Below are positions 34,988 through 49,433 of a stretch of 64,000 bases of DNA, one piece after another. Position 1 is the first letter of the stretch, and each line of letters begins with the position of its first letter. The position numbers were made by a program, and so were the translations under genes. The DNA comes from Alphaproteobacteria bacterium (lineage in GTDB: Bacteria; Pseudomonadota; Alphaproteobacteria; MPNO01; UBA830): positions 1,664,001 through 1,728,000 of the forward strand of contig OZ219790.1 of NCBI GenBank assembly GCA_964291215.2, given 5' to 3'. The notes under the pieces are model-generated. The model had not been told where the DNA came from. It did no database searches and saw only the letters and a list, made by a program, of their open reading frames with translations.

Positions 34988-35183
34988 AAAAAGGGCTCCG
35001 GCGCGCCAGCCGGCAGGCTTCGGCCGCCGGCCGCGCCGTTCCTGTTCGTCGATGCAGCCATTGCCTACCGTGCCTGCCCCGCAAAGCGCGGGATACGTTC
35101 ACGCCCATAGTATTGTCCTTCCCGACTCCTGCAAGTAGTCTGGCGCGACACCGGCAATGACCGCTTGGGGATCCGATCTACCG

Positions 35184-35861
35184 ATGCAGCTTTCACTGAC
35201 CGTGGAACCGGAAGGCGGCGCCCGCAGCGTCGAGGTGGACCAGCTCATCATTGCCGGCTGGACCGGGCGCGACATCGAGGCGCTTGAACGGCACATCAAG
35301 GAGCTCGAAGAGCTCGGTGTCGCCCGTCCGCCGGCAGTTCCCTGCTTCTACAGGGTCGGCTGCGGCAACCTGACTGGCGCAGACTCCATCCAGTGCCTCG
35401 GCGACGCATCGTCGGGCGAAGTCGAGTTCGTACTGATCGGGACCGAGGACGGCATGCTCGTCGCCGTCGGCTCGGACCATACGGACCGCGAGGTTGAGAC
35501 CTATTCGGTACCGGTGTCGAAGCAGATGTGCGCAAAGCCGGTTTCCACGAGCGCCTGGCGCTATGACGATGTCGCGGATCATTTCGACGCGCTGCTTCTG
35601 CGCGCCTGGATCGGCACCGGCGACGCGAGGGAACTCTACCAGGATGGCAGCGCCGCCGCGATGCGGCCGCCCGGGGAACTGATCGCGCGCTATCTCGACG
35701 GCGCACAGACTCTGCCCGCAGGGACGGCCATGTTCGGGGGCACGCTGGCTGCCATCGGGGGCATTCGGACCGCAGGGCGGTTTGAATTCGAAATCCACGA
35801 TCCGGTGCTGGACCGCAGCATCTCCCATGGCTATAGCATCAATTGTCTGCCCGTAACATGA
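35184..35861 (+). CDS. DUF2848-like protein (FAH-related fold)
   Basis: IAGWTGRD..HIKEL, SSGEVE, VGSDHTDR, SKQMCAKP recalled from DUF2848 proteins. Confidence 0.78.
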   Translation: MQLSLTVEPEGGARSVEVDQLIIAGWTGRDIEALERHIKELEELGVARPPAVPCFYRVGCGNLTGADSIQCLGDASSGEVEFVLIGTEDGMLVAVGSDHTDREVETYSVPVSKQMCAKPVSTSAWRYDDVADHFDALLLRAWIGTGDARELYQDGSAAAMRPPGELIARYLDGAQTLPAGTAMFGGTLAAIGGIRTAGRFEFEIHDPVLDRSISHGYSINCLPVT

Positions 35862-35880
35862 CCAGGAAGGGAGAACGGCG

Positions 35881-36264
35881 ATGCCCGTGAACAAGGAACA
35901 CAAGGAATTCCATGCTCTGGATTTCGGCGGCGAATGGGAGGTTCCCGAAGGCTATCCGGAAGGCATCAAGCAGAAGATCCTCGTCGGGCATCTCGACGAG
36001 GTCAAGAAGACCGGCGGCCGCACGCGGCTTCTCAAGTTCGAACCCGGCGTCTTCACCACGAAGCCGTTCACGCATGACTACTGGGAAGAGGTCTACCTGA
36101 TCACCGGCGACCTCATCGTCGGCAATGACGAGAACGGCAACGGCGGCCGCAGGTTCGATCCCAACACCTATGCGTGCCGCCCGCCGGCGACGCCGCACGG
36201 CCCATTCAAGTCGGACGAAGGCTGCGTTTTGCTGGAAAGTCACTATTACGACGAAGGTACCTGA
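35881..36264 (+). CDS. cupin domain protein (ChrR-like)
   Basis: HDYWEEVYLITGDL and YACRPPATPHGPF cupin motifs; good RBS. Confidence 0.82.
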   Translation: MPVNKEHKEFHALDFGGEWEVPEGYPEGIKQKILVGHLDEVKKTGGRTRLLKFEPGVFTTKPFTHDYWEEVYLITGDLIVGNDENGNGGRRFDPNTYACRPPATPHGPFKSDEGCVLLESHYYDEGT

Positions 36265-36297
36265 AGGCCGGCCCGACGATCGCTGGAAGAGCGCAAC

Positions 36298-37668
36298 ATG
36301 ACCGACGCGATGAAACCCGTTCTTGAGTTGCAGGCCGCGCTCTGGAGCGGCAAGACGACGAGCCGCGAACTCACGGAACAGGCGCTGGCGCGCATCGACG
36401 ATCCCGACGGCGAAGGCGGCCGCGCCTTTCTCGCCGTTCACCGCGACGCCGCGCTTGCCGCCGCCGACGCCTCGGACCGGCTGCGCGCCCACGGCATCGT
36501 GCCGTCGCCGCTGGCCGGCCTGCCGGTTTCGCTGAAGGACCTGTTCGACGAGCAGGGACAGCAGACCCGCGCGGCGTCGCGGGCGCGGGACAACGCGCCG
36601 CCCGCCGCCCGCGACGCCACCGTGACGGCGCGGCTTCGCGCCGCGGGCGCGGTCCTTATCGGACGCACCAACCTCACCGAATTCGCCTATTCCGGACTCG
36701 GACTCAACTGCCATTTCGACACGCCGCGCAACCCTTGGGACCGCGCCACCGGCCGCATACCGGGGGGCTCCTCCTCGGGTGCCGGCGTGTCTGTCGCTGA
36801 CGGCATGGCGGCGGTCGGCATCGGTACCGACACCGGCGGATCGGTACGCATACCGGCGGCCCTGAACGGGGTGACCGGCTTCAAGACGACGACGGGGCGG
36901 ATACCGTGCGACGGTGTATTTCCGCTGTCCTCGACGCTAGACAGCGTCGGGCCGCTGGCGCCTACGATCGCCTGCTGCATCGTCGCCGAGGCAATAATGG
37001 CCGCCAGTCCGCCGGCAGTCCCCAAGGCACCGCCGCTCGGCGGGCTCCGTTTCGCCGCGCCGCAGCATTACGTACTTGACGATCTCGACGCGCATGTCGC
37101 GAGCGCGTTCGAAGCCGCCCTGCAGGGGCTTTCAAGGGCCGGCGCGTCCGTCACCGAGATCGATTCGCGGGTCTTCGAGGAAATCCCGGGCGCAATGCCC
37201 CATGGCGGCATTCTCGGCGCCGAGGCGTTCGCCCTGCATCGCGGGCAGATGGACGAGAAGAAGGACCTCTACGACCCGCGGGTCTGGATCCGCATCCGGC
37301 GCGGAGAGAATCTCTCAGCCGCGGACCTTATCGACTGCCACGCCATGCGCCGGGACATCATGGTCCGGGCCGCCGAGATCTCCATGTCGTTCGACGCCCT
37401 GCTGATGCCGACATGCCCGGCCATAGCTCCGCCGGTCGCAGACCTGGACGAGGACGACAAGGCCTACGGACAGGCCAATTTCCTGATGCTCCGCAACACC
37501 ACCGTGGGCAATTTCCTCGATGCCTGTGCGCTGTCGCTGCCCTGCCACGCGCCGGAAACCGCTCCGGTCGGGCTGATGGTCATGGCCGCGGGCCACCACG
37601 ACGGCTGGCTCGCGCGGATCGGTCTGGCCATCGAGGGCGCACTGGCTGCATCCCGGAACGTGTCCTGA
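36298..37668 (+). CDS. amidase-signature family amidase
   Basis: SLKDLFD, PGGSSSG, GTDTGGSVRIPA. Confidence 0.93.
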   Translation: MTDAMKPVLELQAALWSGKTTSRELTEQALARIDDPDGEGGRAFLAVHRDAALAAADASDRLRAHGIVPSPLAGLPVSLKDLFDEQGQQTRAASRARDNAPPAARDATVTARLRAAGAVLIGRTNLTEFAYSGLGLNCHFDTPRNPWDRATGRIPGGSSSGAGVSVADGMAAVGIGTDTGGSVRIPAALNGVTGFKTTTGRIPCDGVFPLSSTLDSVGPLAPTIACCIVAEAIMAASPPAVPKAPPLGGLRFAAPQHYVLDDLDAHVASAFEAALQGLSRAGASVTEIDSRVFEEIPGAMPHGGILGAEAFALHRGQMDEKKDLYDPRVWIRIRRGENLSAADLIDCHAMRRDIMVRAAEISMSFDALLMPTCPAIAPPVADLDEDDKAYGQANFLMLRNTTVGNFLDACALSLPCHAPETAPVGLMVMAAGHHDGWLARIGLAIEGALAASRNVS

Positions 37669-37727
37669 ACCACCGCCGCCCGGGCGCGGCGCCACCCACC
37701 CGGGCGGCGATGTGCCGCGAAGCCCCC

Positions 37728-39218
37728 CTACTCGGCGGCCAAGCTCGCGCCACTGCGGCCAAGTTCGTCCTCAAGACTGTAGCTGTCGAGCACGGAATCG
37801 ACCAGCTCCGCGGCCCGGTCCCAGTCATAAGTGCGAAAGGCGTGCGCGCGCGTCACGAACTGCGCGCCGGCGTAGAACATCTCGTACTGGGCATGACGGC
37901 TCGCGAACTCGGAACCGATCGCATCCCAAGCCAGCTTCATGAACTTGACCTTTTCCTCGGACGAGCCGACGGCCGATTTCTGCGTAGCGTGGATCAGGGC
38001 GTTCAGTTCGGGATTCGCGAAGTCGCGCGCCGAAGACGGAAGCATGATCAGCCCGCCACCGGCAAGCTCGCGTATCGAGGTGATGAATTCCGGGTACAGC
38101 TGCTGCGTAAGGACCTGCGCGGTATACATGAGATTGCGATCCGGCACGTAATAGCCATTGTACTCGCCACCGCCTGATTCCATGCCGTAGACCAGCCCCT
38201 CGACCATGGCCGTCTGAGCAGCCAAGTGCCCCAGCCTCTCCGCCACCGGCGGCATGCCGATGGTGCCGATGGTCTCGCAGATTCGCCGCGCCACGCCGAC
38301 GAGGAACTGCATCTTGACCATCAGGCGAATCTGCGCCTGGTAGTTCTGCATGTAGTGGGCGTAGGTGTCCTGGAACTGGGCGCGGGCGGTGTCGGCGTCG
38401 CGATAGATGAAGACCCTTTCCCACGGCACCTTGACATCATCGCAATAGACCAAGGCGTCGTTCTCGTCGAACCGGGCCGACAGCGGATAGTCATAGGCCG
38501 TGGTGACCGATGCCTCGTAGGAGCGCCGCGACATGATCTTCAGCCCCTTGGCGTTCATCGGCAAGGCGAAGGAGATGGCGTATTTCTCCTCGCCGGGCTT
38601 GAGCGGCTGGATGTTCGCGAACAGGACCTCGTTGGCCATGATCGAGCCGGTACCGAGCATCTTTGCGCCACGGACCGTGATGCCTTCGGAATCCTCGTCG
38701 ACGACGCCGGTGGCAAGATACTCGGCCGGCTGCTCTCCGGTGGATTTCGAGCGCTCCGCCTGAGGATTGATGATCACATACGTCATGTAGACATCATTGT
38801 CGCGTGCCCACTGGAAGTACTCCCAGAGCGCCGCCGCCCGCTCCGGCGAATGCCGCTCGAAGACGGGAAGCCCCATGACCTGCCCGACCATCGACGACGC
38901 AATATGATCCGGAGAGCGCCCCAGCCAACCGCCGGAGAGCCTTGACCATGCTGTGATCGCCTTGCGGCGGACGACGAGTTCCGCATAGGACTTCGTAAGC
39001 TGCCAGCATCGGTTCACCCGCTCGCCCGATGTCGGGCTTTCGAACGTCATGTATTCGACATGATCGGGTTGGGCCTGGAAATCGTACAGCCCGGCCGCCG
39101 TCTCGACGGCATTCCGGTATGCCGGATGCGTCGTCACGTCATCGACCTTGCCGCCATCGAGATAAACCTCGCGACCGTCGCGAAGCGATTGCAGATGTTC
39201 CGCTCCTGTCTTTGGCAT
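37728..39218 (-). CDS. HpaB-family two-component flavin-dependent monooxygenase, oxygenase subunit
   Basis: LRDGREVY, GRSPDH, RFDENDA, WDAIGSEFASRHAQYEMFYAG; GGAGA RBS. Confidence 0.9.
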   Translation of the reverse strand: MPKTGAEHLQSLRDGREVYLDGGKVDDVTTHPAYRNAVETAAGLYDFQAQPDHVEYMTFESPTSGERVNRCWQLTKSYAELVVRRKAITAWSRLSGGWLGRSPDHIASSMVGQVMGLPVFERHSPERAAALWEYFQWARDNDVYMTYVIINPQAERSKSTGEQPAEYLATGVVDEDSEGITVRGAKMLGTGSIMANEVLFANIQPLKPGEEKYAISFALPMNAKGLKIMSRRSYEASVTTAYDYPLSARFDENDALVYCDDVKVPWERVFIYRDADTARAQFQDTYAHYMQNYQAQIRLMVKMQFLVGVARRICETIGTIGMPPVAERLGHLAAQTAMVEGLVYGMESGGGEYNGYYVPDRNLMYTAQVLTQQLYPEFITSIRELAGGGLIMLPSSARDFANPELNALIHATQKSAVGSSEEKVKFMKLAWDAIGSEFASRHAQYEMFYAGAQFVTRAHAFRTYDWDRAAELVDSVLDSYSLEDELGRSGASLAAE

Positions 39219-39293
39219 ACCCTGTTCTCCCTCCGGGCGCGTCGGTGCAGGCACCACCGTCCGCAATTCTGTTTTGCCGCCAAGTTAAGTCAA

Positions 39294-39687
39294 CCCAAAT
39301 TGGCACTTTTTGTTGCGGCCTGGAATTTTTATCGCGTTGCGCGATTTTTTTGTCGGCCGATTTCAACATGGCACCACATTCTGTTGAATTCTGTCAGCTT
39401 GTGAGGCGGCTCCTCGTGCGGTGGGTTCGACACCAGCCGCCGAGGAGATTTCGGCAATCTCGGCGGCGCGTGTCCTGTCGGTTGACGATCAATGCGCGCA
39501 GGCGCGTGGTGACCCTGGTTCCGCATGCTCTCGCGGATTGATGTCCGGCACTTGTCGATGCCCCACGCGGGGATCAGATACACCGCGGCGAGCACGGCGA
39601 TCAACAGGTGGGCGGCGATGCGCTGGCCGGGCGCAATCCGGGCTCGGATTTCAATGAACGGAAGGTGGCCTCGATATCCATGTCCCG
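39294..39687 (-). pseudogene. IS1634-family transposase, 3' half and probable right end (split by IS110)
   Basis: DIEATFRSLKSE(P)GLRP and RIAAHLLIAVLA fragments; continues at 42197-42328. Terminus at about 39294 is approximate. Confidence 0.75.
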
Positions 39688-39827
39688 AGCATCCATGTTT
39701 CTTGGCAAGGTTTTTGCGGGTGTCTGCGGTGATGTTTTCTGTGGTTGTCCACAAGCGGTGTGGGATTTGCTCTGCGAGCGAGGCGACATGAAGCTTGTGG
39801 TCCCGGCGGCGGGTTGCCGTCCATTGG

Positions 39828-40019
39828 TCACGTGAACGCGGCTACCTTGCCGCCCCCGGGCACGTGACCGTCCGGGTTCCAGGTGTCCCAAGGCGGTTCG
39901 ATCTCCTCGATGTCGGCCTCGACGATGATCTGCAGACATTCTCCCCAAGTCGTGTCGGAGACTGTCGAGACAGTCCCGATCGCGCTCTCGGCAGGGCCGT
40001 GTCTCCTTCGCTCACTCAC
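39828..40019 (-). CDS. small hypothetical passenger ORF in the IS110 right end
   Basis: GTG start overlaps the TGA of the recombinase frame (GTGA, 40019-40016). 63 aa, acidic, no recognised motif. Confidence 0.35.
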   Translation of the reverse strand: MSERRRHGPAESAIGTVSTVSDTTWGECLQIIVEADIEEIEPPWDTWNPDGHVPGGGKVAAFT

Positions 40020-40725
40020 CGGTGCTTCAGGCAACGCTGCTGTCGCAGCAAGGTGTTCGCCAGAGCTTGCGCATCACGGCGACAATAGCGACTTTGTGGG
40101 CCTTGTGGCGCACCAGATCCGCGTTGAAGCGTGCTGCCGAGGTCGCGGCCATGAACAGGAGATCACGTGGCCTCCGGCGCCCGCCTCGGATATGCCGAGC
40201 ACCGTGGCCATCGGCGCCACCCCGATCAAGGCTGCCGACGCTGCCGAGTTCGGGCATCCAGCAAAGAAGGGCTGCGGCGGTCACTGGATCGAGGTCAGGG
40301 TACCTCTGCTCGGGATCACCGGCGATCACCGCTTTGATCGCCGCGCCGGCAATCATCGAGATCGGCCGCCGAAGCCCTTGTGACGGTCTCGCCATCCACC
40401 TCATCTGCCACTTGCCTGGCGTCGACAAGCGCGGCACCAGGAGATCCCCCAGGCAGTTGAGGAAGGCTTCCTGAGGAGCCACAGGCTCGAGATCGCACCG
40501 TGCCGATCTTGGCGTCAACGCGGTTGGCCCAAAGCCTCGGCGAAGCCCTCAACGGGCAGGACAACCTCGAAGCCCCGGTCATGAAGACACTCCTTGCGGT
40601 GATAGCGGCCTGTCGCCCACCACACGGGTTACCTCGAGGCTGCGAAGCCACGTGCCCGTGGCGTCGTTCGTAAAACGACGCCCCAGATGTCCAGACTGGC
40701 TGACCCCTGCTACTACCTTGACCAT
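40016..40725 (-). pseudogene. IS110 DEDD recombinase, eroded
   Basis: MVKVVAGV..RFTNDATG..WLRSLEVTRVV N-terminus; RHIRGGRRRPRDLLFMAATSAARFN..KVAIVAVMRKL C-terminus. Multiple frameshifts; only about 710 bp. Confidence 0.88.
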
Positions 40726-40726
40726 C

Positions 40727-40912
40727 GTTCCTCGCCTTATGATGATACGGTTCAAACCCAAGCATCCATTCAGGACGCAAGGGACGCCAAAGGAGGTTGC
40801 CACGCTCGGGAACGGCTCTATAAAGCCAAGGACGGAACGGCAACCTCCGCGGAGATCGTTTGATCCCCGCTCCCCTGTACGTTCTCACACAGGGGAGCGG
40901 AATCTCTCTGCA
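40727..40912 (-). ncRNA. IS110 bridge RNA
   Basis: 5' 12-bp hairpin (40867-40878/40889-40900). Target-binding loop closed by a 10-bp stem (40792-40801/40839-40848). Donor-binding loop at about 40730-40785. Guide segments match the element ends and flanks. Exact RNA ends are estimated. Confidence 0.85.
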
Positions 40913-41000
40913 ACCATAGCTCTCCCATAGTCGAGGTTATCCACATTTTCCCGCCCCCAACTGCTGTGGATGATTTCATCATCAAGGGGACAAAACCTAG

Positions 41001-42184
41001 CCCCACTTCCAGTCTGAAGTGCAACACCCGGCCCTCATCGCAGTGAGGGCGTAGCCCGAACGGAGATGAGGGCCGGGTGTTGCGCAAATTTTTCCCCTCT
41101 GCCCCTCTCGATTCCGCCTAGGAACAGCTTCAGTTCCTTCAACATCAAGCTTATGCAACGCCTTTGTCGGCTTCAAGCCACTATTTCCCCGTCGCGCGGC
41201 ATGGACCCTGCTGCACGTTGCGGCTTTGGAACGCAGATGGTCAGGGCGGTTTCACTTCAAGATTACCTCCGTCGGCGATCCCAGGACTTTCCGAGTGTTG
41301 AGCCGATCCTTCTGAACATCTTCGTTGCATGTCGCGCGAAAGTCCGTGCCCTTCGGGAAGTACTCCCGCACCAGGCCGTTGGTGTGCTCATTCAAGCCGC
41401 GCTCCCAGGAATGGAAAGGCGAAGAAGAAATCTGCATCAAGTGCGACACGCCTGTGGTCTGCGAACTCCTTGCCGTTGTGATTGTGTGGACCAATAGCGC
41501 ACCAGAGCCGAGCAGGCGGATCATACCGACCGTGTCTTTCTGTCCACCCAGCAAGGTGTATTTCGTGGCACGAGCAACCAGCGACAGCTCCACTGTGAGC
41601 TTTGCCGATGATGGCTCCCAGTCGCCGATCCGTTCCTTTGCCTCCGCAGGGCGCTCGGAAATGTCCACTCGGCCAGGACCCGGCCAGAATGGCATCCGCC
41701 CTTCCAGTTCGGCTTCTTGCCGCGCCGCCGAAGCTTCAAGACACCCCCGGCTCTCCGATCTTCGGCGATCATGGATACGTTCACGGCCCTCCAGTCGAAA
41801 ACGGCCGCTGCTCGGGGCCCTCCCGCAGCTTTTTCTGAGCTTCAACCCGAGGCGTCAACCGCCAGGAAACAGACGAGGCGGCCCTGCGTTTCTGCCATCC
41901 TTTGCGCCTGCTTGTGACGGTAACCCCGTCCCCCGGTGTTGCGCTTGATCTCCCGGAAAATTGTTGATCGGCCCAGCTGCCGAGCAATCGCACCTTGTGA
42001 AAGACCGCTTTTCTGCCTCAATCTGGCATCGCTCTTCGTAGGTGACGGTAGCCTTTGGACATGAACAAGCTCCCTCCATCTTGTACAGGAACTCTCGCCG
42101 CTGCTGGACAGCTCCGCAACATCATGCGTCTAAAAACACATGGCCACAGCCCATCATGTGTTGCACTTCACTATGGAACGGGGG
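41001..42184 (-). mobile_element. IS30-family element, transposase pseudogene
   Basis: 27-bp IRs sharing TGAAGTGCAACAC (41001-41027, 42158-42184), 3-bp duplication TAG (40998-41000, 42185-42187). Fragments EERCQIEA, RIGDWE, PFHSWERGLNEHTNGLVREYFPKGTDF. Confidence 0.9.
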
Positions 42185-42196
42185 TAGTCATATAAG

Positions 42197-42328
42197 GACG
42201 GTCTCCCGGTCGCTGGTGCGCAGGCGTCCGCGGTGTCATCCGCCTTGTCGTCTGTGGCTGAAGCGCACGGCAGTTGCGTTGGCGCCGGCCTTCTCGACAG
42301 TGGTCTCGTAGTGCCGGCGACGGCGGAG
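42197..42328 (-). pseudogene. IS1634-family transposase, segment upstream of the IS110 insertion
   Basis: VARHYETTVEKAGANATAVRFS..LRTSDRETVL leads directly into the CT core. Confidence 0.7.
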
Positions 42329-42447
42329 CAGAGGAGTCTCACGCTAAATTCTGTGTAACTGCTCACCCTCTGATTCCGGCTTGATGTCGGGGTAGAGCAA
42401 CCAACGGATTTTCGTGGAGACATGACACTGTAGATCGATTCGGCTAG

Positions 42448-45233: not shown

Positions 45234-46984
45234 CACGGCGATCCCACGCTAGGTTTGTTGGAAGGGTCGGTTTCGCTTGTTCAGGATGATTCGCATTTTC
45301 GCTGGCTTTTTGTGAAGCGGCGTAGTATCCGTTGTCGTGGGGGCAGCGGATTTTTTTGAGACGACTCCGGAGGGTTTTGAGCTCCGGGATGTGGTTGTGC
45401 GCCTTGCGCGGCCTGATGTCGCTGGAACCGTGTTGTTGACCGTATCTTGGTTTCAAGCAGTTTGCCGGTCGAGGTCTGCGTGTTCACTTGGCGCGGGCGG
45501 TGGATTGGCACTGCAGGCTGGCAGACGGGCGCCCTCAGCTGCGCACCCGTTGGCTGGCGCCGCGAGGAACAGTTCAGGCGGTTGCCGGGAACAACACAAG
45601 GTTTGTTGTTCTTGGTGGTCGTTTCCGGGCCTCGTTTGCGTTGTCGCGGATGGTGCGGCGGCGACTGGGAGGCTGCCGTTGCTTGTTGCGGAGTCGTTTG
45701 TCTTGCCGACGAAGTTCAGCGGCACCATGTACAAGGCGGCGAACTGGGAGTGCGTTGGCAGGAGCTATGCGCGCGCCAGCGGGCGCTATACCGACCGGGG
45801 AGGCGAAGGATCTTTACGTGTTTCCGCTGCGTCGCGATGTCGGCTGCGGGATCGTTCGCCGCTTCCTGTGGCGTGGGAGTCTGCGGGCGCCGCTGGTCGG
45901 CGCAGGAGTTGCGCTCGATTTATCAGCGGCGCTTTCCGGCGCGCGCAGGGGCATCGCCTCGGTGCTGTGCGTGATTTTGCTGGCTTGCGAACCGGCACGG
46001 TGCGGTTGCGGCGGCGCACTACGACGCAGAAGGAGCTGGAGCAGCATGGAAGAACAGGGACAAGCCGGTCTCCACCGTGCACCGGGTGCTGCAGAACACC
46101 GACCCGGGATGGATCGAGGATGCGGCGCGCAGCCGCAGGTCGGCAACGCGGTCGACGGCAAGCGCACCGGCGAGGATCATTACGAGACAGTCTCGCTGGC
46201 CGGTATTCGATCCTCAACTATCACGACGGGGAGATCGCTGCCGTCCACGCCGCGACGGCGCTGGCCGTCTGCTCACCCTCGACGCGCTCCACACCACCCG
46301 CGAGGCTGATCATCGAGACCCATCGCGCGGACTGATGGTCAAGGGCAACGCACCTTCGAGAGAGCATCAACTGGAAGACCGCCAGCGCTACAACGAAAAG
46401 CCCGCGCATGGCCGCCAGCGCACCATCTTCACCCCGCTGGCGAAGATGATCAACTAGCAGATCTTCCGCGTCACCCGGCGCGTCGAATTCAAGAAATCCG
46501 GAAAACGGACAACCGAATACGCCATGACCTCGGCCGAACGCGCCTCGCCGCAACAGCTGCTCGCATGGAATCATGGACACTGGGTAGTCGAGAGCCATCA
46601 TCATGTCCGCGATGCCACCTTCCGCGAAGACGACTCCATGCTCCGAACGCGCCCGCAAACAACGCGATCACCCTTGCAATCATCATCCGCAACAAGCTGC
46701 CCAAACCCTTCAACAGCTTCGTCGACACCACTATGCCAACAAGCGCAAGCAGGTCCTGCACGCAATCACAAGACCAGGCTGACCGCGCCTCTCTCCCCGG
46801 CAGAAACTGCAAGCTTTCGAGCCCGGCAACCAAGGCCTCTCGCTCGCCCCGGATACGCCGACCAATCGCGCCCCGCCCCGTAACAGCGCGTCAGCAAATC
46901 TCAAAATCGCAGCCTCGAACGCGTCGACCCGCGCCACGATCAGGACTCCGATCATATCACATCAACAAGCATGGGATCACCTTG
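45234..46984 (+). mobile_element. ISAs1-family IS with N-terminal DUF4338 region; pseudogene
   Basis: IRs CACGGCGATCCCACGCT / revcomp CAAGGTGATCCCATGCT. Exact 9-bp duplication TTGTGACCG (45225-45233, 46985-46993). AESFV..FSGTMYKAANW, AVDGK, LTLDALHT, VKGN, HGHWVVESHHHVRDATFRED. Confidence 0.88.
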
Positions 46985-47093
46985 TTGTGACCGCCGGGGT
47001 GCTTGCCCCGGCCGCGGTTATGGGATAGGATTGCCGCACTGAAGCATGTTCATCTGCCACATGACAGATCGACCACAAAGGGGAAGAAGCGCG

Positions 47094-49433
47094 ATGACAC
47101 AGAATATTTCCCGGACCGGCGGCGCTGACGACGACACCCTGACGGGGGGCGTCGGCAATGACATCCTGAAAGGCGGCCTCGGCGACGACACGCTGACGGG
47201 CGGCGCTGGCGACGACACGCTGACGGGCGGAACCGCAAGCCCGGGTGCCGACGCGGACTTTCTCCTCATGAACCCCGGCAGTTCGGACGATGACACGCTG
47301 GACGGCGGTGCTGGCGACGACACGCTGGACGGCGGTGCTGGCGACGACACGCTGGACGGCGGCACGGACAACGACACGCTCTATGGCGGCGACGGGGACG
47401 ACACGGTGGATGGCGGTGCGGGCAACGACCGTCTGGAAGGCGGCCGGGGCGCCGACAGGCTGACCGGCGGCCGGGGCGCGGACTCGCTCTATGGCGGCAG
47501 TGGCCATGACGTCTTTGCGTTCGCGGTCGGCGACGGGGCCGATTACATCGGCGATTTCGAGGCTGGCGACATCATCGAGATTGCCGGGGTGTCCGGCGGT
47601 TTCGGGGATCTGGTGATCGAGCAGAAGGGCTTCCATACCGTCATCCGCTACGGCGACGGCGACACGATCAAGCTGGAGGGCGTGTCGGCGGCCTCCCTTG
47701 GCGCGGACGACTTCCGGTTCCTTCCCGTCGAGGCAGCCCCGCCGGAGGGCGGCGGCGAGGACGCTCTTGCACAGGGCGCGCCGCCGGAGGGCACGTCCGG
47801 CGACGCCTCGAGCGGCGGGCCTTCTGGCGGCGAGGTGCTGAAGGGTAGCAAGGACGCGGACACGCTCACCGGCGGGGCCGGCGACGACACCCTGCGTGGC
47901 TACGGGGGCGCCGACACGCTGACCGGCGGGGCTGGCGACGACCTCCTCTATGGCGGCCTGGGCGCCGACACGCTGACCGGCGGGGCTGGCGACGATACGC
48001 TGGGGGGCGGCAAGGGCAACGACACGCTGGACGGCGGCGCGGGCGACGACACGCTGCGCGGCGCCAGGGGTGCCGACACCCTGCGCGGCGGCGCGGGCGA
48101 TGACACGCTGGGGGGCGGCAAGGGCGCCGACACCTTCGTGTTCGTGGCGGGAGACGGCCACGACACGATCACCGACTTCGGAGCCGGCGACCGGATTCGC
48201 CTCGACGGCGAGTCCGGCGGATTCGCGGCGCTGGTCATCGAGCAGGACGGCGCCGATACCGTCATTCGCTACGGCGGCGGCGACACGATCACCCTGTCGG
48301 GCGTGTCGGCGGACAGCCTGGATGCGAACGACTTCATCCTGCCTGCTGGCGGTGGCGGCGACGATCACGAAAAGGCCGCTTACGGCGCCAGTACGAGCGA
48401 CGACGACAACGACGGCGGCAATCCCCTCGATAACGACAACGACGGTGGCAACCCGAATGCCGGCAACGATGGCGGCGACCCGAATGCCGGCAACGATGGC
48501 GGCAACCCGAATGCCGGCAACGATGGCGGCGAGGACACGGACACGATCCCGGGCACTTCGGGCGATGATCCGCCAGACATTGAGGCCTGCGGCGTGACCA
48601 TTCGTGGCAGCGCGGACCGCGATTGGCTCTTTGGCACCGCGTGCGACGACACGATCTACGGCAACTCGGGTGACGACAAGCTCTACGGTCGAAAAGGCGA
48701 TGACATAATCTATGGCGGCGGGGGTAACGACCTCCTCCGCGGCAATTCGGGCGACGATGAGCTCTGGGGTGGGGACGGGCACGACTTTCTGACCGGTCGT
48801 AACGGCGACGACACGCTGGAAGGCGGCAAGGGCAACGATTTTCTCTCGGGTGGTTTGGGGGTTGACACGCTCCGGGGCGGGGAGGGCGCCGACCGATTCG
48901 GTTTCTTCGAGAAGGGCTACTACAGCCAGTGGGGATTCAAGGATGGCAGCGACGACACGATCCTCGACTTCGAGGATGGAACGGACCGCCTCGACTTCCA
49001 CTCGGTCGACGGGGAACTCGGCTTCGATGACCTCGAGATCTGGCAGTCCGACAGCGGCGCTGCCATCAACTGGTCCCTGGGGACCATCACCCTGGAGGGG
49101 ATCCAGACGTCGCAACTGACCGAAGCCGATTTTCACTTCGTCGGCCTGCCCGACTGGGCACTCGACGACAGCAAGGGCGACGACACGCTCCGAGGCCGCC
49201 CGGGCTACGACTCGTTCGGATTCGCGAATGGTGGCGACGACACGATCGTCGGCTACGAGGACGGAATAGACCGCATCGACTTCTACACGGAAGACTCGGA
49301 GCTCGACTTCGACGACCTCGTGATCCGGCAGTCCGACAGCGGCGCGGTCATCACCTGGTCCCTGGGGACTGTTACCGTGGTGGGGATTCAGGCGTCGCAA
49401 CTGACCGAGGCCGATTTCGACTTCGTCGGCTGA
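47094..49433 (+). CDS. RTX (hemolysin-type Ca-binding) repeat protein, probable type I secretion substrate
   Basis: Many GGxGxDxLx nonapeptides in three blocks; four modules ending in xDFxF/L; very acidic and Gly-rich; purine-rich RBS before ATG 47094. Confidence 0.92.
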   Translation: MTQNISRTGGADDDTLTGGVGNDILKGGLGDDTLTGGAGDDTLTGGTASPGADADFLLMNPGSSDDDTLDGGAGDDTLDGGAGDDTLDGGTDNDTLYGGDGDDTVDGGAGNDRLEGGRGADRLTGGRGADSLYGGSGHDVFAFAVGDGADYIGDFEAGDIIEIAGVSGGFGDLVIEQKGFHTVIRYGDGDTIKLEGVSAASLGADDFRFLPVEAAPPEGGGEDALAQGAPPEGTSGDASSGGPSGGEVLKGSKDADTLTGGAGDDTLRGYGGADTLTGGAGDDLLYGGLGADTLTGGAGDDTLGGGKGNDTLDGGAGDDTLRGARGADTLRGGAGDDTLGGGKGADTFVFVAGDGHDTITDFGAGDRIRLDGESGGFAALVIEQDGADTVIRYGGGDTITLSGVSADSLDANDFILPAGGGGDDHEKAAYGASTSDDDNDGGNPLDNDNDGGNPNAGNDGGDPNAGNDGGNPNAGNDGGEDTDTIPGTSGDDPPDIEACGVTIRGSADRDWLFGTACDDTIYGNSGDDKLYGRKGDDIIYGGGGNDLLRGNSGDDELWGGDGHDFLTGRNGDDTLEGGKGNDFLSGGLGVDTLRGGEGADRFGFFEKGYYSQWGFKDGSDDTILDFEDGTDRLDFHSVDGELGFDDLEIWQSDSGAAINWSLGTITLEGIQTSQLTEADFHFVGLPDWALDDSKGDDTLRGRPGYDSFGFANGGDDTIVGYEDGIDRIDFYTEDSELDFDDLVIRQSDSGAVITWSLGTVTVVGIQASQLTEADFDFVG
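48407..48530 (+). repeat. 27-bp coding tandem repeat (NDGGNPNAG) within the RTX gene
   Basis: CCCGAATGCCGGCAACGATGGCGGC occurs three times at 27-bp period, with a degenerate upstream copy. Confidence 0.85.

Follow-up and report, generated by a model that had tools for sequence, protein, structure and literature searches.

In all likelihood the window, i.e. the whole 64,000-nucleotide stretch of DNA analysed here, carries a broken bridge RNA of an IS621-type IS110 element, one of approx. 64 copies in its genome which share one donor and have target loops matching their flanks, a state likely reached through guide changes that re-aimed the family at resident multi-copy elements. The window copy itself is ordinary and dead; its value lies in the family, which is likely a fossil record of natural guide re-aiming. 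The family is useful as a natural mutational scan of the bridge RNA, within one genome and at a constant donor: the scan indicates that the target is read from position -5 to +5, that empty sites are associated with single mismatches and that the handshake base changes along with the target.

The element and its bridge RNA in the window

Judged by its sequence, the element is an IS621-type IS110 with the bridge RNA in its left end. The IS1111 group, where the guide RNA lies in the right end and long sub-terminal inverted repeats are present, was rejected since the RNA here is in the left end. On the minus strand the element extends between two CT cores, 42196-42195 at its left end and 39689-39688 at its right end (Table 1). 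Both junctions are CT, no long terminal repeats are present and empty sites rejoin seamlessly at one CT. The window flanks, when rejoined, form a remnant of an IS1634-family gene, and an exact empty site exists at C2:3461094 of the same genome (G000; 6.15 Mb, 2 contigs). Empty copies of this IS1634-type host overlap NF033559 matches (e.g. C2:2442121-2442585, E 3e-13).

Table 1. Features of the nested element and its surroundings in the window
Feature	Position	Strand	Remarks
IS1634-family transposase remnant, 5' part of the host	42197..42427	-	ends in left target GACCGTC; outer limit approximate
First 12 nt of the IS110 left end, with the CT core (42196-42195)	42185..42196	-	holds the right donor and a predicted -10 box (42192-42187)
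IS30-like element inside the left end, broken	41001..42184	-	3-bp duplication CTA; NF033563 E 1e-15, under cut-off
Remainder of the left end, with the bridge RNA	40726..41000	-	covariance model (R1) match 40719-40885, 61.9 bits
Two 5' hairpins	40852..40900	-	predicted folds, 40900-40867 and 40867-40852
Target-binding loop	40792..40848	-	left target guide (LTG) 40837-40829; inner hairpin 40827-40814; right target guide (RTG) 40811-40805; handshake bases 40804-40803
Donor-binding loop	40727..40783	-	left donor guide (LDG) 40769-40761; right donor guide (RDG) 40744-40736 (8 nt, one bulge); handshake bases 40735-40734
IS110 recombinase remnant	40027..40725	-	approx. 699 nt, frameshifted; tblastn to the relative P0001 E 1e-23; PF02371 E 0.006, under cut-off
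Right end	39688..40026	-	small-ORF remnant; predicted -35 box (39708-39703); left donor ATGGATG; CT core (39689-39688)
IS1634-family host, 3' part	39361..39687	-	right target CGGGA at its start
Empty ISAs1-type target of sibling guide B	46522..46535	+	one-base mismatch CGGCC

The reading of the region as a bridge RNA and all four guide assignments of the initial annotation were confirmed. The LDG equals the right end at 39696-39688 (9/9), the five RDG bases 40740-40736 are complementary to 42196-42192 (5/5), the LTG agrees with the left flank at 7/9 bases and the RTG is complementary to 39689-39683 (7/7); the RDG can moreover be extended to 8 nt (8/8) with one bulged base. In dinucleotide shuffles of the 186-nt region (n=20,000) all four guide words occurred together in none and three of them in 2. 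The left end had been placed at 42196, and this proved correct despite the distance of 1.2 kb, since the gap is filled by the IS30-like element, inserted 12 nt inside the IS110 left end, and other copies are uninterrupted, reading CT-TATATGA-CTAGG directly into window position 41000. This left-end junction was compared with 9 relatives, and the joint 40998-42187 is present in contigs of two public runs. The genome has 45 near-full copies of the IS30-like element. In 4 of the 64 left-end rows such elements lie directly against the left end, possibly a hot spot at the junction promoter.

The 5' hairpin and the two internal-loop stems described upstream of the gene were found as well, with the stems partly deleted in the window copy. 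The RNA cannot, however, be called intact, as it had been at first. Compared with the longest sibling (L007) and the relatives, the basal stem of the target loop is short by 6+5 nt, what remains being a perfect 10-bp helix, and the donor-loop stem lacks its 3' arm of 7 nt; in addition, the left end is split by the IS30-like element and the recombinase has lost 4/5 catalytic motifs. Scoring by a covariance model had been suggested. Model R1 was built from 20 relatives only with the structure set by hand (RNAalifold mis-paired the donor loop), and it gave 61.9 bits (E 5e-11) for the window RNA, while undamaged copies from the window lineage reach 70.5 and L007 reaches 100.5. In the R1 alignment 94.3% of the cells pair, and 15 two-sided changes were counted against 2.9 after shuffling, mostly from one 3-member clade. 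The fold of the 186-nt region has a z of -4.55. The guides had been expected in unpaired loops. This did not hold for the LDG in the predicted fold of the free RNA, where 6/9 of its bases are paired (p unpaired <=0.21); the guide reading is nevertheless not refuted, since partial pairing of a similar kind is seen in intact relatives.

By homology to IS621, the excised circle would join a -35 box of the right end to a -10 box of the left end, and the RNA would be transcribed from there. When the ends are joined, -35/-10-like boxes stand 17 nt apart in the window copy, where they are split by the IS30-like element, and in the relatives displayed, which is a match to the consensus only; a promoter scan gave nothing useful. 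The circle junction occurs 0 times in the assembly, and it was not seen among the matches listed in contigs of four public runs, which says nothing on its absence. The recombinase would hold ATGGATG-CT-TATATG in the donor loop and approximately CCGTC-CT-CGGGA in the target loop, and the strands would be exchanged at CT with handshake pairing.

A small-ORF remnant (approx. 70 aa, same strand) is present in the right ends of the long copies of the family (L002:1334-1537; approx. 39830-40010 in the window), and searches for homologues of this ORF gave none. The right ends of the long copies are longer than those of the intact relatives. Intact, catabolic-looking genes at 35157-39266 directly adjoin the nested IS stack; the frame at 36298-37668 is presumably amidase-like and that at 37728-39266 flavin monooxygenase-like. 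On the other side an intact 795-aa ORF (47046-49433), rich in GG-G-D nonapeptide repeats, is taken by us to be a calcium-binding RTX-like protein.

Guide repertoire, flanks and exchange between copies

Counting the family in G000 gave 64 bridge regions, 64 left ends and 70 right ends. A single donor is common to the 64 copies, and their target loops combine 11 left guides with 10 right ones into 18 pairs; two parses were fixed by hand, and one flank was dropped because an IS30 element abuts the core. The window target had been given as TTCCGTC-CT-CGGGA. Along the left target, from position -7 to -1, the guide matches the flank in fractions of 0.15, 0.15, 0.68, 0.90, 0.82, 0.85 and 1.0 of 40 copies, and along the right target, from +1 to +5, in 0.98, 0.97, 0.92, 0.73 and 0.90 of 60 copies. 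The outermost positions, -7 and -6, thus match in only 15% of the 40 copies versus 68-100% for -5 to +5, which points to about CCGTC-CT-CGGGA as the read target of the window guide, with -7 and -6 apparently not read.

Covariation between guides and flanks was evaluated with one unit per flank class, represented by its majority guide, ties being broken arbitrarily. In G000 the left halves scored 51/60 against a null of 36.1 (15 classes) and the right halves 68/80 against 49.0 (16 classes), each reached in 0/20,000 permutations. Among the relatives 51 of 79 loci could be scored for both guides and both flanks; their 19 guide pairs gave 143/171 against a null of 72.1 (0/20,000), and permutation only within four genomes gave 90 against 65.2 (59/20,000). 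The covariation proposed by the initial annotation as a check is therefore present both in the G000 copies and in the 51 related loci, and the single specificity that it suggested has to be given up: other copies have other flanks, yet they carry other guides matching those flanks.

The handshake base in the donor loop tracks target position -1 (G with C, A with T) in 48 of 53 related loci and in 38 of 39 own copies; T/A swaps are seen in three genomes, and four related loci depart from the rule with C/A. This is as expected of an IS621-type element, where the handshake base is to pair with position 7 on the other substrate. A change on the donor side is followed too, since copies with the left end CTTGT have the matching donor guide in 4/4 cases versus 3/36 of the others.

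That these matches arose by chance or by local flank duplications, without any RNA-guided targeting, is hardly credible. The words are short and the DNA is GC-rich, the seven-base RTG alone occurs in 953 of the 20,000 shuffles, and an Rfam search found no bridge family, its one match (E 3.2) being a chance one; but the guides keep a fixed order and position in a conserved two-loop scaffold, they covary with the flanks across 12 genomes and they follow the handshake rule. The permutations of the guide/flank covariation (0/20,000) refute the chance reading.

The backbones of 57 aligned copies fall into a near-clonal lineage A (19 copies, the window copy included), a mosaic lineage B (33) and the long copies (5). 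C2_3385750 joins two different sites, by crossing-over or conversion, C2_2862896 is a long copy with an A-type middle, and L040, when compared with L074, has acquired the right guide of a sibling by local conversion. Since mosaics are present, the copies are not independent of each other. New guides may have been made by point changes and by conversion between copies. It is improbable that the 18 guide pairs are mostly decay or conversion products of three or four separately acquired elements with fixed targets, with little re-aiming in G000. Three backbone lineages do exist, lineage A has one main guide, and lineage B is heavily mosaic with shuffled left/right guide combinations being common. 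However, within one backbone the bases changed in rare guides are just those by which they fit rare sites (TTTTCAC/CGCTC at ATCAC-CT-CGCTC; CGATC; CGTCC; CATGA; TTTCCGT with its handshake change), and the same one-base tracking of target by guide is seen in the intact relatives (L073 versus L078).

Re-aiming by guide changes, which we prefer, has to accommodate the misfits. Only 20 of 36 fully scorable own copies match at 9/9, even with wobble, the right target is matched 5/5 in 38 of 60 own copies, and a sibling right guide is present in 10 of the 16 copies scored within the main flank class, CGGTC. The intact copy of G001, a genome of the same genus, matches its own left flank at only 1/7. 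Most of the misfits in G000 are probably due to conversion and crossing-over between copies. Almost an even chance is given to a shared guide pool, where the common donor would let any target loop insert any copy, even a defective one, in trans. The own guides of L064, L077 and L081 fit their sites at 2-3/9 and a sibling guide at 9/9 (L075: 5/9 versus 9/9), the former three copies keep their own type out to both ends, and catalytic motifs one and three are missing from all 19 lineage-A copies. Trans guiding is plausible since the two loops of one IS621 complex come from two RNA molecules, according to the available part of PMC11208158. Against the pool, such cases amount to only 4 of 51 related loci at 3 distinct sites, with only 2-5 guide pairs sampled per related genome; local guide conversion is directly visible in L040 and C2_2862896; the lesions shared in lineage A may have spread by conversion after insertion; and L075 also fits a 'half-match' insertion as outlined in the available part of 10.64898/2026.08.31.748434. 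The presence of L064, L077, L081 and L075 at the target of a sibling guide can thus reflect either trans guiding or gene conversion, whole-element conversion included.

Target sites, occupancy and decay of the family

The target sites are mostly within other repeats, most of whose family matches are under their cut-offs. The hosts are of the IS1634 type (H1), the ISAs1 type (H2), a second ISAs1 subfamily (H4, H6), ISNCY-like (H5), a DruA-like repeat (H7) and IS630-like (H8), with one further host (H3). The window lineage A is mostly in one spot of the IS1634-type genes, and the spots matched by sibling guides, 1-3 bases away, belong to two ISAs1 subfamilies or to ISNCY-, IS630- and DruA-like repeats; H2 and H4 are targeted at matching codons by guides two bases apart. 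In L118:1-2010 and L115:1-1395 a Druantia DruA-like domain (PF14236, E 2e-23) lies upstream of an ISAs1-type transposase frame and is continuous with it, an arrangement with approx. 31 copies.

In case of H1, 14 sites are filled, all of them with CGGGA, and 13 of the 14 empty sites are mismatched, in five kinds. In case of H2, 21 sites are filled and none of them has CGGCC, while the empty ones comprise 13 with CGGCC, 7 exact and 3 otherwise damaged. At H6, which differs from the window guide by one mismatch, 30 sites are empty and 1 right flank is filled. The filled H1 hosts are not clustered (11 changes versus 9.6 shuffled, on a poorly resolved tree), which fits repeated insertion. On the other hand, exact yet empty sites were found for rare guides, 19 in H4 (guide D) and 7 in H8 (guide F), and 4 exact window-type sites are unoccupied genome-wide; these count against simple saturation. 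Conversion among empty hosts could also have spread the mismatched alleles afterwards.

A wider proposal would make the family a guide library with one donor, whose target loops are re-aimed by point change and left/right shuffling, serve defective copies in trans as well and are directed mostly at other IS families, the matches there being filled until mismatched escape alleles remain; it would also take the L122/L121 locus, described below, as a retained stand-alone guide. This proposal is possible but, on the whole, doubtful.

No intact recombinase of the window family is present among the 64 copies in G000. The longest ORF from a start codon among them is 120 aa, the window copy keeps 1/5 of the catalytic motifs and no copy more than 3/5, and all of the seven scored scaffold segments are kept in 0/64 copies. 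Two intact 427-aa genes of the IS110 family, L025 and L026, were considered as helpers and are not counted as such since model R1 finds no RNA near them. They belong to another IS110 group and, together with two intact IS1634 genes, escape the general decay; perhaps they are recent arrivals.

The sizes of the indels between copies have a sharp peak at 5-8 nt, where 203 of the 313 distinct ones of the window family fall, and deletions of this size later eroded all copies. The same peak is present in the six other multi-copy IS families scored, with 4-19 indels of 4-9 nt per kb across families, and the same deletions are common to different lineages. In 100 kb of single-copy DNA 18 such losses were found in G000 versus 6 in G001. 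An assembly artefact was rejected as their source, as contigs of the public runs X1-X3 have the window bridge sequence with 0 differences; in these contigs, which stem from one study that may include the source, the copies differ by indels of 5-12 nt. Microhomology was likewise rejected as the main cause, since repeats of at least 4 bases accompany only 33 of the 262 indels, against a null of 4.8, most indels showing 0-1. MutS is intact in G000, and a search of this genome for a Piwi domain found none. Another IS family of G000, starting with GTAACTGCTCACCC (e.g. C2:3051594), has at least 182 copies of half length or longer.

Relatives and comparison with known systems

The relative P0001 of G001 has 315 aa, encoded by an intact gene of 948 nt, with PF01548 and PF02371 and an NF033542 match over the cut-off. 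The only solved structures that it matches are those of IS621 (E 4e-27) and ISCro4, to which it aligns at the catalytic positions. P0001 retrieved 79 related loci, the records of which are mostly from Paracoccaceae and other Alphaproteobacteria, and all parsed right ends of these loci finish in ATGGATG-CT. The best full-length protein relatives are approx. 44% identical. DNA searches gave a match only in G001 among 40 related genomes, and none among plasmids with a long copy as query. The intact relatives of 313-315 aa, with approx. 25 natural guide pairs, make re-aiming and guide sharing testable, and the family adds a new donor sequence to the genome-editing toolbox.

The bridge-RNA mechanism (2024), covariation across orthologues, engineered use in trans and transposase genes as targets are already published, as the available portions of the literature compared below state. 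The closest known system is IS621 of E. coli with its bridge RNA (Durrant 2024, PMC11208160; Hiraizumi 2024, PMC11208158; PDB 8wt6). As far as the accessible text of these papers goes, the family shares with it the RNA in the left end, the 5' stem-loop ahead of two internal loops, the CT core, the LTG/RTG/LDG/RDG layout, the handshake bases, the discontinuous RDG and the junction promoter, here a predicted one; D, E, D, D and S are aligned in the 315-aa relative. It differs in the donor (ATGGATG-CT-TATATG) and the targets, which are genes of other IS and not REP, in the bases read (7+2 in IS621, approx. 5+5 here, with -7/-6 unmatched and +1 to +5 matched), in the one bulged RDG base, in the left end of approx. 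290-310 nt and in all G000 copies being dead. ISCro4, or IS622 (10.1101/2025.05.14.653916; PDB 9t56), as described in the part of the report available, also has the CT core and a long target-loop stem with one flipped base, as in L007; its protein is distant (E 3e-25 to P0001) and, unlike the family here, it has a single natural 14-nt target.

Transposase genes of other elements are targets of ISEc21 as well, which inserts at their conserved codons (Siddiquee 2024, PMC11187229, available in part). The same portion of that paper cites ISEc11 versus ISXne4 as natural re-direction by a changed guide, the two being 72% identical and from different species, in contrast to the 18 guide pairs within one family of one genome here; it also raises IS621 versions of >95% identity with different targets, of which it reports none found. 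ISPpu10/ISPpu9 of Pseudomonas putida (10.64898/2026.03.19.712850; PMC12288879) resemble the family in the junction promoter, predicted here, and in a G-U wobble in the left guide, and trans activity was shown for them with engineered donors; unlike the family, according to the available text, they have one REP target and no natural guide repertoire, and their orphan ssr9 RNA is not the guide. Further related literature, likewise available in part, is PMC13626964 and 10.64898/2026.08.14.744561. A guide repertoire within one genome was found in no paper of a search mostly confined to literature outside subscription, ISfinder lying beyond its coverage, and the papers found gave no answer on natural re-aiming of bridge RNAs or guide sharing between sibling copies. 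The supplements of Durrant (7 files as text, one incomplete and one unreadable) contain the donor or target words only as chance library words.

Apart from the repeated family, a single-copy left end with a bridge RNA and only approx. 20 recombinase codons is present at L122:1500-1806 (G000 C1:1870811-1870987) and L121:1378-1680, in the same place beside a tRNA-editing gene (PF04073) in the sister species G000 and G001; the two are 86% identical. The scaffold is kept (95.5 and 110 bits) and the donor loop is the same, while the target guides differ at 8/12 bases versus a background divergence of 14%. The L122 guide matches its own left flank at 6/7. In G002-G004 a search for this bridge locus matched only the neighbouring gene. 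The locus may be a relic or a retained guide. A second bridge-like RNA of G001 (L123:407-591 on C57) scores 82 bits, with no recombinase seen after it; the gene whose end lies upstream of it is presumably that of EF-Tu.
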